Shown piece by piece: positions 3,001 through 9,000 of a DNA stretch of 13,952 nt. Position numbers: made by a program. Position 1 is the stretch's first letter, and every line of letters begins with the position of its first letter. This stretch comes from a virus (Duplodnaviria; Heunggongvirae; Uroviricota; Caudoviricetes): the IMG/VR virus record IMGVR_UViG_2698536392_000016; one strand, given 5' to 3'.

Positions 3001-6000
3001 ACTGTGAACGTCATGCGGCCTCACTTCTGCTGTTTCGCAGGTCTTTAAGTTTCTGCTGATACTTCGCCTTGATCGCCCTGCATTCTTCGACAGTCCAGCG
3101 ATGGCGGTTATGGTTCGATTCGATTTCGTCTACTGCTTCCTGCCCGATGCGGTTAATCAGTTCGACGCGATACGGAACGAGATTTCCGCTTTTGTACTGG
3201 TTACACACCACGCATTGCTTGTGGATATTGCGTTCATCAAATCTGAGTTGGGGAGCCGCAGCTGTTGTACGGTAATGACCTGCATCCCACTGAGCAGAAT
3301 CGAATGTCCCGCATGAAACGCACGGCAAATTACGGTCTCGTTCTCTGATATAAGCATTCACGGCCTGCTGTGCCTGCTTAATCCAGTAACTGCGGGGCTG
3401 TAAGTCCCTTCTTCGCGCTTTAAGTTTGTCTGCCTGTTCTTTTGCAAAGGCTATGGCCTTTTCTTTTCTGACCAGTTCAAGTGCGCACTGACCGCAACAA
3501 ACTTTCTGATACGAGCGAAACGGCACAAACGGGGTTCCGCACACTTTGCATTTTTTAGGTTTACGTTGCTGCATCATCACCTCAGAAAAACGACAGCAGG
3601 CGGTTATTCAGTTCAGGGCTGTTTGAGCGCCCAAACACATGCTTTAACGCGGCATTAATCATTGAGTTGTAGCAACGTTCAAACTCATCCTGATCCATAT
3701 TCGCGTAACTCAGGCTTTTTGCCCGATATCTCACCTCGCCTCTTATGGTTGTGACCACATCATAAAACCCGGCAAGAATTGTCAGATTTTTACGAAACTC
3801 ATCAAACTGCGTCGCTTCATCAGAGAATTCGTATCCGGCATGTTCAGCGCACCAGTACTGAAAGCAGAAATTAAGAAAAGCGAACATCTTCCGGTGAAAA
3901 GATGGGTTACGGGTAAGTTTTGCTTCCAGCGTGTACTGCTCGCCGTTTTTAAATTTTGCCAGGCGGGGTAAATCGCGCTCATACGCCAGTTCGAATACGC
4001 CATTAGCTGCCTTGATCATCTCTATTTCCATCAGGCAGCCTCCGCTTTGAATTTGCGCGTCAACACATGCTCACGGGCTTCCCCCCCCTGAATGAGCATG
4101 TCGTTAAAATCCGGCAGGTCAGGCCAGCGAATACTGACCTTCTCAACGTCATTGCGACTCATGAGATTCTTATGCCCGCATTTAAAGGCAGCCGCCAGAC
4201 CTGCGCCGTGCTCATCATTGTCAGCAAATATAATCAGGTGATTAACGCCTGGTGGCGCAATAAACTTCTCCATAAAACCGGAGTTCATTGTTGACCACAC
4301 ATTGCAGCGGAATATTTGACGGCATGAAAGCGCCGTTTCGATACCCTCGGCTATCCCCAGAGTGGACGACACCGGATACAGGCGTATTGCCACCGATTTG
4401 GCATACTGCAAACCAGGCAACTCCTGTAGCGCGGTCATTTTTTTAGCCGCCTCTACATTCGCCTTGCGATCACCATCCAGCAACGTACGATGCAGATAGC
4501 AAAGAGAACCTTTGTCATCTGTTGCAATGGCGTAAATTGCCTGATATTCGCGCCCGCTGGCGATCTGACGGTCACAGAAACGCACGGATTCGGTCGGTAA
4601 CTGGAGTATTCCCCTCCCCTGCAGGTACGCCTCACCTGTTGTGCCCCGCAGACATGAAAGTCTGGAGAACTTATCCATGACCAGCTTCCGCTTTCTGCTT
4701 ATCTCTGTTACAGGCTGGCTGACTTTCTCCCTCTTCCAGGTATTTCCGATCAGCCGATCGATTTCATCACACAACGTCACCCAGGGCTTACCCGTGGCAA
4801 GTTGCAACAACTCCATCCCGTCCCCGTGACCACAGACGCAAATCCACGAACCGGAGCCATCTTTATCATCACAGCGAAATTTACCTCTGGCACCACATAT
4901 CGGGCAGGGTCCGTTGTAATGTTTCACACCAGTAACAGGAGGCATGCCGTAATATTCAAAAATTCGCCCCCAATGCCCGACCGCTGCCTTCTTAGTCTGC
5001 ATGCTGGCCTCCTGTCATGGCTTTCTTGCGCCCTTTGGCATAGGCAATGGTCTTTGACTTGATGAAGTTGTACACTTCAACTGAGGTTTGCAGCGGCGCA
5101 TTACTGAATCCTTTGGGCCAAACCCCGAACTTCTCCTTGTAGGTATGAGCACACCATCCGTCACTCAGGGGTTTACCAGTCGCGTTGCGGTAATTCTGAT
5201 ACCCCTTGATCTCACTCCACCAACGCTGCTTTTCCTCGCGGCTGTATTCGCGTTTCCCTTTGTTGACGCGTGAAAGCTTACGATCGCGATCTGTCGCCAC
5301 GTCATCACCACCAAGAGGACGAAATCCACATTTGGGACACATATGCACGCCAGCAGGCTTCATGAAGTGGCATTTGGGGCATTTCCTGGGAAGTTTCTCA
5401 GCCTTAACCTCACTCCCGCCAGCAGACGCTTGCATTCCGTCATTTTTTCCCGGAAGTTCGTCATACTCGATATCCTCGGGGAAGCCCAGCCGATGAACCG
5501 TACCGGAATGGTCGAAAATCAATGCGCGTTTTTTACCAGACGCAGTACGTAACGCTCTCCCGATGCACTGCAACCAGCGGATTTCTGATTTGGTCGGACG
5601 GGCGTAGATTAGGCAGCGAACATCGCTGTCAAATCCCGCAACCAGTACGCCAACGTTGACAATTATTTTGGTCGCACCCTCTTCAAAACGGCGAATGATG
5701 TCCTGCCGTTCATCATGGGGGGTATCTGCCGTCATCACCTCTGCGCCAATGCCAGACTGTAAAAACTCACGGGTAACAAAGTTCGCATGAGCCACGTTCA
5801 CGCAGAAGCAAATCGTCGGTAAATCCTCGCCATTCTCAAGCCAGTTGCGAACGATATCGCCAACCAGATCTGAACTCCCCATGATGGATGCGAGCTGCTC
5901 CTCGTTGTAATCCCGTCCAAATACGGTGTTACTGGTTTTTACGCCAGCCAGATCAGGCATTGAGGGGGCAAAAAACTCATAATCGCTCAGATCACCACGC

Positions 6001-9000
6001 TGAATAAGTTCACGAATCGTTGTAGGCTTGATCAGGCATTCGTAGTACTTCCCCATCCAGGCTGCGAACGGGGTGCCGGAAAGTCCAAGAACCCTGATGT
6101 CTCTGTCCCGGATAACCTCAAGTAACGCACGACGCTTCATGTGTGCTTCATCGATGATCAGCAGATCGATGTTGTCAGGAAACTCACGACGGATCAGCGT
6201 GTCGGCACTGGCAATCTGAATCAGTCGTGACGGGTCATAGTTAGGGTGATCACGCCATACAAAACTGATTTCTTCCCACGGCAAACCGTATTCGGTGAAA
6301 CGTTCCGCTGTCTGGTTCAGCAGGATGGTGTACGGACAGACAAACATCACTCGCATACCACGTTCAACCATTCCGGCGGTGACGAATGCTGCAAGACCAG
6401 TTTTGCCAGAGCCAGTGGGTGCGTACATCAGGTACGTGCGATGCTGTTTCCACTGGTGCCGCAGCTGGTTTAAACCGCGCTCCTGAGCAAAGTTTGGGGT
6501 GATTTTCAGCATGACGCCCCCTTGCCATTCGCCGGGATGATATCGATCCCAGCATCGCTATAACTGGTCAGTTTCTTTGGCATTCGAAGCAACACAAAGC
6601 CTTCAGTGCCACGACGTGCCAATTCACGCAATTTCATGACTGAGCGGGGTCGAGGAGAGCTACGATCGATCTCAATAGCCACACTCCCACCAGTTTTTGC
6701 TGTTGCGAGAATATCAACACGGAAATTTCTGCCATCGATTCTTACTGTGACATTGCTTGCCACATGCATCCCCTGTGACTCAAGGATCGTTACAACATCA
6801 GCCAGAAAGCTGTAACGCTCCTCTGTTCTCAGTGGTACAGTGCTCAGTGTACGGATCAGTGCCGATTTGGTTTCTGCTGACATAGCTTATCACTCAATAG
6901 TTAGCTCGATAATCATTTCACCAGAAACTATCGCGCGCTTATACAGTGATCTACCTAACCTATGTACCTGCCTTCTGGCCTAGGCCAAGGGATACAGGCC
7001 TTACCAACGACTCCACCCCCTTACCCCCTCCTCGCTTCCTTTCAGGAAATTAGTTGCACGTGAAATTATCTCTAGCGCAACTAACCGCCATCATGGTGTC
7101 GGGGGAAACTTCCGTACCGCTACTGGCGAAAGCATCCAGCCACGGCTGGCTCTCGCGTACTTCTGGACATACACCCGTAACCGGGTGTTGGCGCTCCGTC
7201 TTGCCCTGTTGCCCTTCCTGAACGATACAGGCTCCTTGTCCCACTCTTCCTGGTACACTCTCGCGTACTCTGCTGCAATTTTTACCCGGGTGGTCGGGTC
7301 TAGCTGTAACAATTGCTCCTGTATCCAGTCCCGATCAGCATCACAGTACTGCTCGGGCATAACCGTTTTGATTTGCCTGTTCACTCACACCTCCGATGGG
7401 CTGTGTGTCCAGGATTAATCATCGCCTCTTACGAACGCAGGGAACGGACGAACCTCTTCCGCCTCAACTGTGCCGTCATCAAAGGTTTTGACGTATATTT
7501 CTCGTCCGACGAGAAGCGCTTTACTGATTGCACTCTGCGCCACGCCAAAGTCCTTAGCGGCTTTCTTTTGGCCGAACCTGTATACGTAATCAGCCAGGGT
7601 CTCTTTTTTCATCGCCATAACTGACTCCTTCAAAATGCCCATATCATTACGCACAGTTATTAAAATGTCAACACCGCAGATATTTCATTACATATAACCA
7701 AAGGTGATATGGTATGAACATGAAAAAGAAACCGTTAACCCCTGAGCAACTGGAAGACGCCAAGCGTCTGAAAAGTATTTTTAACGCTAAAAAGAAAGAG
7801 TTAGGCCTGTCGCAGGAATCATTAGCCTATGAATTAGGTGTTACCCAAAGCGCTGTTAATCAGCTAATGGCTGGCATCAACGCCATAAATGCCAGCCACG
7901 CAGCACAGCTTGCTAAGATACTGAATGTAAAGGTCGGAGATTTCAGTCCCAGCCTGGCAAAATCTATTGCAGAAATGGCGCTCGCAATTGAAGAGCCATT
8001 AACTCGTGTCCCCGCTTACGAATATCCGTTACTCTCCTGCGTACAAGCTGGCGCATTCTCAATGGATGATATTTCGTACACCGCAAAAGATGCGATTAAA
8101 TGGATCTCCACCACCACAAAAGCCAGTGACAGGTCGTTCTGGCTGGAGGTCAAGGGGCATTCAATGACCGCACCGCAGGGTGGTAAACCCAGCTTCCCTG
8201 AAGGTATGCTGATACTCGTTGACCCTGAACGGGAAATCGAGGATGGCGATTTTTGCGTGGCCCGAATGAACGGCGATGAATTTACCTTCAAACGATTCAT
8301 TCGTGAGAGCGGTAAAGCGTACCTGGAGCCGCTCAACCCACGATTCGACATGATTGAGTGTAACGAAAACTGCCAGTTTGTCGGAAAGGTCATCAAATCG
8401 CAGTGGAATGATGAGACTTTTGATTGAGCTCACAGAGTGATTTGACATCCTTCACGCCTGAAGAATGTGGAGGATGTCAAAAGCACGTTGGCATCATCAT
8501 GCCACGTAAAGAGGATTAGTTATGCTTCAAAAGCTAGACGTCGCAGACAGCGTGCGTCGCGAGCTGTCTCCCCGTACCGCGCGTAAACACAAAGCAGAGT
8601 TCGGCCAGTTCATGACGCCTTCTGGCGTGGCCCGTTTTATGGCCTCCTTGTTTCCACCGAGCACAATGAAAACTTGCCGTCTACTGGACGCAGGCGCTGG
8701 TGTAGGCGCACTGTCTTGCGCCTTCCTCGACCGTTGGCTGGTTGGCGAGTTTGGCTTTGAGTCTGTCGAGGCAACAGCCTACGAAATCGACAAAAAGCTG
8801 TGTGGTCACCTTGCGAAGCACTTAACCGGGTACAGGAGAGTGACGCCCCGCATCATCGAAGGGGATTATATTGAGCTGGCAACCGCCGAAGGTCTACAGG
8901 ATCGAGGTTATACCCATGCAATACTTAATCCGCCTTACAAGAAGATCAATAGCCAGTCAGCCCACCGGCAGGCTCTTCGCACTGTCGGTATCGAGACGGT

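Follow-up and report, generated by a model that had tools for sequence, protein, structure and literature searches.

Gene content and order of the early-right region

The DNA analysed here (the window) is a 13,952-nucleotide (nt) stretch of a Caudoviricetes phage genome, IMG/VR record IMGVR_UViG_2698536392_000016, and holds the immunity, early-right and toxin region of a Shiga-toxin (Stx) phage in reverse orientation. Our subject is the replication module at 4031-6883, three consecutive genes for a protein of 125 amino acids (aa; p125), a helicase and a primase, together with the DNA that accompanies it. Following a PR-like promoter, the minus strand carries cro, the gene of a 97-aa protein (p97), a 207-nt gap, p125, helicase, primase, NinB/DUF1367, NinG, NinH, Q, three tRNA genes, stx2A and stx2B (Table 1). 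The PR-like site was the sole promoter-like sequence returned by a promoter scan of 3500-7750. All three open reading frames (ORFs) of the module are present where an initial annotation of the window had placed them, and its proposal that lambda O and P are replaced in this operon also holds, since there are no O or P homologues and the helicase-primase pair stands between cI/cro and NinB-NinG-NinH-Q-stx2.

Table 1. Features of the module and its surroundings, by position in the window.
Feature	Positions	Strand	Basis or remark
cI repressor, lambda-type S24	7714-8427	+	PF00717 and PF01381 (Peptidase_S24 and HTH_3); divergent from module
PR-like promoter	7643-7671	-	TTGACA-17-AATGAT; within the cI-cro intergenic region; would drive cro, p97, p125, helicase and primase
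cro	7415-7654	-	PF09048; mechanical ORF start GTG 7654
p97, arginine-rich three-helix protein, 97 aa	7091-7384	-	phrog_852, unknown function; true start may be ATG 7360 (MPEQY...)
AT-rich imperfect palindrome	7050-7084		Inverted repeat search
G-box GAGGAGGGGGTAAGGGGG, consensus AAGAGGGGGGTAAGGGGGG	7016-7033	-	In 9 of 10 lineages, p125-less ones among them; not seen in Photorhabdus
Core CCAGAAGGCAGGTACATAGGTTAGGTAG with extension ATCACTGTATA	6940-6978	-	21-mer GGTTAGGTAGATCACTGTATA is 6940-6960
Conserved non-coding element, candidate origin or regulatory leader	6884-7090	-	Between p97 and p125; G-box plus CATAGGTTAGGTAG
Mosaic cassette, non-coding element and p125	6500-7110		Sliding-window identity against L048
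p125, predicted stand-alone PD-(D/E)xK (restriction-endonuclease-like) fold protein, 125 aa	6506-6883	-	Stop overlaps helicase start (ATGCTGA); variable slot upstream of helicase
eru1A, SF2 DEAH helicase, RadD-like, 506 aa	4992-6512	-	Pfam, PHROG, motifs
eru1B, zinc-ribbon/Toprim primase, 323 aa	4031-5002	-	Pfam, PHROG, motifs
eru1C, NinB/Orf-like DUF1367 protein, 149 aa	3582-4031	-	PF07105, phrog_319; start shares one base with primase stop (TGATG)

The helicase and primase genes correspond to the Eru1 unit

The helicase is assigned to superfamily 2 (SF2) by Pfam matches to ResIII (2.5e-15), Helicase_C (4.6e-12) and DEAD (3e-10), all exceeding the curated cut-offs, and by a PHROG match to phrog_16 'DNA helicase' (2.6e-110). 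The SF2 motif set can be read in two RecA-like cores: I (APTGSGKT, residues 31-38), Ia (59-68), II (DEAH, 121-124), III (SGT, 145-147), V (287-295) and VI (QCIGRALR, 315-322), followed by a CPKC-x10-CPKC ribbon (378-381 and 392-395). The best solved relative is E. coli RadD (6jde, 8e-17). With RadD and the SF2 helicases of ResIII/XPB-like type the protein shares the RecA-like cores and a CxxC...CxxC ribbon after the second core; unlike RadD, its gene is coupled to a primase gene and it ends in a different stretch of ~110 aa that matches no family (residues ~400-506, window 4992-5320, containing GWCAHTYKEKFGVWPKGF). This stretch is conserved in the Serratia and Photorhabdus homologues, a search of the C-terminal 142 aa against family profiles found no family beyond a weak zinc-ribbon profile, and the region could be a partner-binding or a DNA-binding domain.

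The primase matches Zn_Ribbon_Prim (PF08273, 9e-15), DUF7146 (1.5e-17) and Toprim_3 (1e-11), again above the Pfam cut-offs, and phrog_510 'DNA primase' (5e-139). Its N-terminal ribbon (CPIC 33-36, CVC 55-57) and a Toprim domain with the conserved Glu (E219, in EGIET 219-223) and DxD (D261-x-D263, in DND 261-263) are those of a zinc-ribbon/Toprim primase. The same CxxC...CxC ribbon and Toprim residues occur in the T7 gp4, P4 alpha and DnaG primases (PF08273 and Toprim), from which the protein differs in having DUF7146 between ribbon and Toprim and no fused helicase. A sequence search for a solved relative of the primase found none. Profile tests and motif reading thus bear out the initial annotation of a helicase with a C-terminal CxxC...CxxC ribbon and of a zinc-finger Toprim primase, for which unwinding and primer synthesis, respectively, would be the expected activities.

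Of the gene junctions that had been described, the 7-nt ATGCTGA of p125 and helicase and the 11-nt overlap of helicase and primase (4992-5002) are as stated, whereas the third is TGATG, with one base shared at 4031, and not ATGA. Good Shine-Dalgarno sequences lie within the preceding gene for helicase, primase and NinB; that of p125 is only weak. The overlaps permit coupled translation, but overlapping genes are common in phage operons and do not in themselves count as evidence for the stoichiometric coupling that was proposed.

By sequence comparison the helicase-primase module is an already published and widespread unit, not a new one. Llarena et al. (2021; PMC8044961) described Eru1 as a unit replacing O and P, composed of eru1A (SF2 DEAH helicase, 506 aa), eru1B (Toprim, 323 aa) and eru1C (DUF1367, 149 aa). 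In the window, O and P are missing, eru1A, eru1B and eru1C follow one another with these sizes between cI/cro and Q-stx, and both the Eru1-type repressor (Peptidase_S24 and HTH_3) and a lambda-like Cro are found. The initial annotation was right to call the module non-lambda; it did not state that Eru1 is published and named.

In 98 phage records there is a match covering at least 80% of the segment 4031-7100. Closest is a series of Japanese Stx2a phages (LC7278xx) with 100% identity, and nucleotide identity is 97.6% to TL-2011c, the P13374-like O104:H4 phages and phi191. TL-2011c (genus Oslovirus) is annotated over the same genes with a hypothetical protein, DEAD/DEAH helicase, DNA primase and NinB; in genes, sizes, order and position the module is essentially indistinguishable from the Eru1 of TL-2011c and P13374. 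Among 5426 complete E. coli genomes the helicase occurs in ~150, and the window's allele of the p125 region in 134.

Eru1 phages carry stx2a in several outbreak strains with a high rate of haemolytic uraemic syndrome, including O104:H4 in 2011 and O103:H25 in 2006. They have been linked to unstable lysogeny as well as to outbreak strains, with spontaneous induction reported far more often than for lambdoid Stx phages (PMC8044961), and a follow-up classification distinguishes thirteen Eru types (PMC8951638). Both papers are bioinformatic except for lysogen-stability assays, and in neither is there a word on p125, p97 or an origin. The literature searched yielded no functional study of the Eru1 genes. 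Toxin output tracks phage replication. What the present analysis adds is modest: the predicted fold and family ties of p125, its optional, cassette-like nature, the overlooked constant p97, and a concrete candidate origin. The question of how Eru1 phages begin replication is thereby narrowed to a candidate origin of ~200 bp, a constant 97-aa partner, and a nuclease-fold protein that is optional and is exchanged, as a cassette, along with the candidate-origin DNA.

p125 is modelled with a restriction-endonuclease-like fold

The 125-aa protein was rightly called uncharacterised in the initial annotation: it has no Pfam family, it falls into a PHROG of 'unknown function' (phrog_1347, in which it covers columns 149-273 of a 417-column profile), and the Eru papers do not refer to it. 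A word-indexed search recovered only near-identical E. coli proteins, and an exhaustive HMMER search recovered 29 relatives. In an alignment of 22 stand-alone relatives E71, D73, R78, S81 and K84 are invariant and G54, D57 and P77 nearly so, within the motif GRVD...AIExDRxSPRxxSxxKL...VLLR.

AlphaFold2 confidently models p125 from this alignment with the alpha-beta-beta-beta-alpha-beta core of the PD-(D/E)xK (restriction-endonuclease-like) fold (predicted local distance difference test, pLDDT, 93.5). Foldseek comparison with viral models returned PD-(D/E)xK, VRR-NUC, Mrr-type and Cas4-like nucleases; the p125 sequence profile matches AF1548 at 1e-4, and half of the relatives weakly match Pfam MTES_1575 or Mrr_cat. 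The signature is a variant one, with D57 on strand 2, E71-x-D73 on strand 3, Asp at the canonical Lys position and the invariant K84 on the next helix.

Longer relatives of p125 are multi-domain proteins in which the p125-like domain lies in the middle, flanked by Pfam DUF6291, DUF1376 or Phg_2220_C. The flanks match PHROGs annotated as 'replication initiation O-like', 'DnaD-like helicase loader', 'replication initiation protein' and 'primosomal protein', and D57, E71, D73, R78, S81 and K84 are invariant in these fused relatives too. p125 thus aligns, with six invariant residues, to the central domain of phage O-like/DnaD-like initiators (full-length phrog_1347 members, for example P0018), while lacking both their N-terminal winged-helix (O-like) domain and their C-terminal Phg_2220_C-type domain. 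With both flanks missing, p125 is not itself an initiator of the lambda O or DnaD type, which combine a winged-helix origin-binding domain with a C-terminal recruiting domain. The fusions, annotated by homology, are the best evidence that a domain of the p125 type acts in initiation, and they lend some support to this possibility.

A constant core and a variable slot

To place the module in context, loci were gathered by exact-protein look-ups and a genome scan and compared with the window proteins. Ten lineages were represented: E. coli alleles A and B, an IMG/VR locus (L029), two Salmonella loci (L117 and L120), Yersinia, Serratia, Photorhabdus, Kosakonia and Atlantibacter. Every locus has p97, a non-coding stretch, helicase and primase, and differs in the type of the neighbouring repressor, Cro and CII. 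Linkage of p97 to the helicase-primase pair was seen in all 12 loci checked, spread over the ten lineages.

The position between the non-coding stretch and the helicase gene is, by contrast with this constant core, variable. A p125 homologue (33-44% identical) occupies it in five lineages (E. coli A, E. coli B, L029, Salmonella L117 and Yersinia), and it is empty in four (Serratia, Kosakonia, Atlantibacter and Salmonella L120). In Photorhabdus the occupant is a winged-helix protein of 161 aa that is RepL-like (PF05732, 29.4 bits, cut-off 20.3) and resembles the N-terminal domains of phage initiators. In Photorhabdus cinerea (L115) two 14-bp repeats, CCCACAGTATGGGA, 22 nt apart (2877-2912), precede the winged-helix gene (2944-3429), and from their sequences this protein and these repeats look like an initiator with its putative binding sites. 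The RepL-like occupant supports reading the position as a slot for origin factors. Since four related p97-helicase-primase modules have the slot empty, p125 cannot serve this module type in general as its initiator. The earlier suggestion that the 125-aa protein is a candidate initiator or loader therefore stands in part: the occurrence of its domain inside O-like/DnaD-like initiators and the RepL-like protein in the same slot speak for it, and the empty slots against.

One further locus, from Yersinia kristensenii (L007, 2622-3856), has a p125 homologue that is frameshifted or truncated, with terminase genes directly after it; this is apparently a prophage that has lost its helicase-primase region.

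The constant small protein p97, which the initial annotation had missed, contains an arginine-rich helix, NRARRSANTRLR (NRAR..ANTRLR), that is invariant across its relatives and suggests nucleic-acid binding. One phage record labels this protein CII. The label is wrong: Photorhabdus and Serratia carry true CII-type genes (PF05269, PF06892) besides their p97 homologues.

A conserved non-coding element between p97 and p125

The interval between p97 and p125 has 67 G and 32 C on the sense strand, and an alignment over nine divergent loci shows blocks conserved across the enterobacterial genera examined within flanking DNA that cannot be aligned. The G-box is followed by a variable segment of 20-45 nt, often a hairpin, whose loops are of GNRA type in alleles B and D, and then by CTTTTCCAnCAGAnAACTCCATAGGTTARGT (core CCAGA...CATAGGTTAGGTAG). 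The 5' part of the core is kept in most of the nine aligned lineages and partly lost in Serratia. Its continuation, AGATCACTGTATA, which completes the invariant 21-mer, is found only in the five p125-bearing lineages. The sequence ATAGGTTAA is found in Photorhabdus as well, immediately before the two repeats. In a scan of viral contigs with a 15-mer, most matches came from unrelated phage families with the 15-mer in coding DNA, and only matches to the extended motif were used.

A search for iterons and other repeats in 3500-7750 gave just short two-copy matches; the tracts highest in AT are those of the cI-cro operators and of the Q region, and the module contains no DnaA box. Only two exact copies of GTGAAATnAT exist in the window, at 7060-7069 (+) and 6912-6921 (-), inverted on either side of the core. 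As an iteron this motif was rejected: with one mismatch allowed, 5 copies are observed in the window against 4.5 expected, and the exact inverted pair within the intergenic region is all that is suggestive. No sigma-70-like promoter or convincing terminator was found in 6884-7090, terminator-like sites across the 3500-7750 scan being no more frequent than the shuffled expectation.

Nor do we claim an RNA element at 6884-7090. Rfam searched with 6400-7800 at E<=1 returned just a spurious lncRNA match, and RNAalifold on 11 leader sequences gave a weak consensus (-4 kcal/mol, covariation term -0.05, 1 compensated pair). In one stem, GATrGTT/AACyAT, a compensated double change turns A-T into G-C, and G-U is tolerated on the sense strand only.

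Because 6884-7090 is the sole strongly conserved non-coding DNA of the module and travels with p97, helicase and primase, it is the best candidate for the origin, which on this sequence evidence most likely lies there. The earlier judgement that sequence does not reveal the origin therefore holds only in part, since the conserved element supplies a concrete candidate.

Separately, in the Kosakonia, Atlantibacter and Salmonella loci without p125 (L118, L119 and L120) a GGCTTAAAGGTG-like motif is present two or three times in the non-coding stretch immediately after the p97 stop, along with a TTTAGACGKCTAAA palindrome; the window has nothing equivalent.

Exchange of the non-coding element together with p125

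Among the IMG/VR loci, L048, L065 and L072 are examples in which cI, cro, p97, helicase and primase are 96-100% identical to those of the window, whereas the p125 proteins are 36.8% identical. Sliding-window comparison with L048 gave 96-100% identity outside and 26-58% inside a 600-bp tract with sharp breakpoints at ~7110 and ~6500. p125 and the DNA upstream of it occur here as two alleles that have diverged deeply. Since these breakpoints bracket both the non-coding element and p125, the two form a single exchanged unit. An island of 92% identity (6909-6958) is retained within the otherwise diverged A/B cassette.

Lambdoid phages exchange segments that carry initiator and origin specificity. 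The cassette pattern resembles such an exchange and is also compatible with nuclease-driven conversion.

A model for Eru1 initiation and its alternatives

The explanation we favour is that the window represents the early-right region of a Stx2a phage of Oslovirus type and that the genes at 4031-6883 are the published Eru1 replication unit, working as follows; we put the probability of this explanation, taken jointly, at about 0.6. Judged by homology, transcription from PR would read cro, p97, the non-coding element, p125, eru1A, eru1B and eru1C, and the helicase and primase would act as a phage-encoded pair for unwinding and priming in place of the capture of host DnaB and DnaG by O and P. The constant core would consist of p97, the non-coding element, helicase and primase, with initiation at 6884-7090 and p97 as a constant small partner in it. 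Transcription aids initiation in lambda and at R-loop-primed origins, and while PR transcription crosses the element, the G-richness of its non-template strand could make opening or an R-loop more likely. p125 would be an optional, exchangeable accessory, made with the helicase through the ATGCTGA overlap. Since the ATCACTGTATA extension co-occurs with p125, the protein would most likely act at the adjacent element, binding or nicking its DNA. The module resembles that of lambda O/P in its position (after cro/cII and before the nin region and Q), in its PR-driven operon and in the mosaic exchange of a specificity segment; it differs in that helicase and primase are phage-encoded, where lambda hijacks DnaB and DnaG, and in having no iterons inside a gene.

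Several observations weigh against this explanation. SF2 helicases are not the usual replicative helicases, and RadD, the closest solved relative here, has an accessory role in chromosomal repair and recombination. The candidate origin lacks iterons, DnaA boxes and a marked AT-rich unwinding element. The D...ExD...K arrangement of p125 is atypical for its fold and makes nuclease activity uncertain, and the absence of p125 from four related modules means that its function is dispensable there. GTGAAATnAT is alike in alleles A and B though their p125 proteins are 37% identical, which argues against an allele-specific p125 site. Finally, no experiment in the searchable literature shows that any gene of the module is needed for replication.

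Among the alternatives, the one we regard as least unlikely is that p97 and the non-coding element serve transcription control, as an N/nut-like or put-like antitermination system or an RNA leader, with the origin at some other place, such as within the coding sequence of helicase or primase. Such a role would suit the invariant NRARRSANTRLR helix of p97, the GNRA tetraloops in the variable hairpin of alleles B and D, the compensated change in the GATrGTT/AACyAT stem and the reported lack of an N homologue in Eru1 phages (PMC8044961). Yet the RNAalifold consensus is weak and Rfam gave no match, the blocks are conserved in primary sequence while the hairpin is not conserved in every lineage, no terminator is predicted in 6884-7090, and p97 travels with helicase-primase across immunity and CII types rather than with cro/cI. 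Next in order, and also unlikely, p125 could be a selfish gene for a homing-endonuclease-like nuclease with no role in replication, the mosaic being left by nuclease-driven gene conversion. In its favour are the nuclease fold of p125, in which acidic and basic residues are conserved, the polymorphic presence or absence of the gene in related modules and the sharp breakpoints around it; distant relatives occur as lone early genes in unrelated phage contexts, and a phage 'homing endonuclease' is among the Foldseek matches. Sporadic insertion would not, however, lead one to expect four to five very divergent alleles (33-44% identity) at exactly one position; moreover, the swapped tract takes in the whole upstream non-coding element, the domain is integral to initiator-like proteins of other phages, and p125 matches no recognised homing-endonuclease family.

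More doubtful again is a role of p125 as a structure-specific nuclease of the Hjc, RusA or VRR-NUC type, resolving or trimming branched DNA for recombination-dependent replication with NinB and NinG and not serving the origin. Three p125 relatives weakly match Pfam Hjc, NinB and NinG come after the module, and the p125-less Salmonella module has RusA directly after the primase. On the other hand, NinG/Rap is already in the operon, the p125 domain is fused to origin-binding or loader-type domains and not to recombination proteins, and the 3' half of the 21-mer co-occurs with p125, suggesting a sequence-specific over a structure-specific relationship. That the nuclease-fold protein and the SF2 helicase are a defence or anti-defence moron pair (a Hachiman HamAB or type III Res analogue) and no replication module is very improbable, and we rejected this on PADLOC results and context. 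The N-terminal half of the helicase does match Pfam ResIII, and there are generic matches to defence helicases, but PADLOC has no model for p125, primase or p97 and matches the helicase only as generic SF2, a Toprim primase always goes with the pair, and the pair sits in the O/P position with no other replication genes in the region. With the archaeal Bax1-XPB and Hachiman HamA-HamB pairs there is no sequence-level relationship and no PADLOC match, the context here being a primase-linked phage replication operon.

Returning to the Eru1 replication unit, a bolder extension can be drawn from it, which we consider improbable, ranking it between the homing and the structure-specific nuclease. p125 and its fused relatives might constitute an unrecognised class of nuclease-fold origin factors which, with p97 and the G-box/CATAGGTTAG element, would direct initiation independently of DnaA and of O/P, the PD-(D/E)xK domain opening or nicking the origin and the cassette (~6500-7110) setting replicon specificity among co-resident Stx prophages. 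If so, cassette-set replicon specificity could be one of the reasons why lysogeny is unusually unstable in Eru1 phages, among them the Stx phage of the O104:H4 outbreak strain.

Neighbouring genes

For cro, ATG 7618 has a strong Shine-Dalgarno sequence (GAAGGAG) and agrees with the 67-aa Cro annotated in TL-2011c. Directly past cI lies a type II restriction-modification pair (8522-10941, +), consisting of an Eco57I-like methyltransferase and a BsuBI/PstI-type restriction endonuclease. Beyond it, a 283-aa protein (11489-12340, +) combines Ash and Rha (Phage_pRha) domains and may be an antirepressor-type regulator. At the other end of the region, the three tRNA genes (Arg-tct, Arg-tcg and Met-cat; 1700-1951, -) sit between Q and stx2A, their usual place in Stx2 phages.

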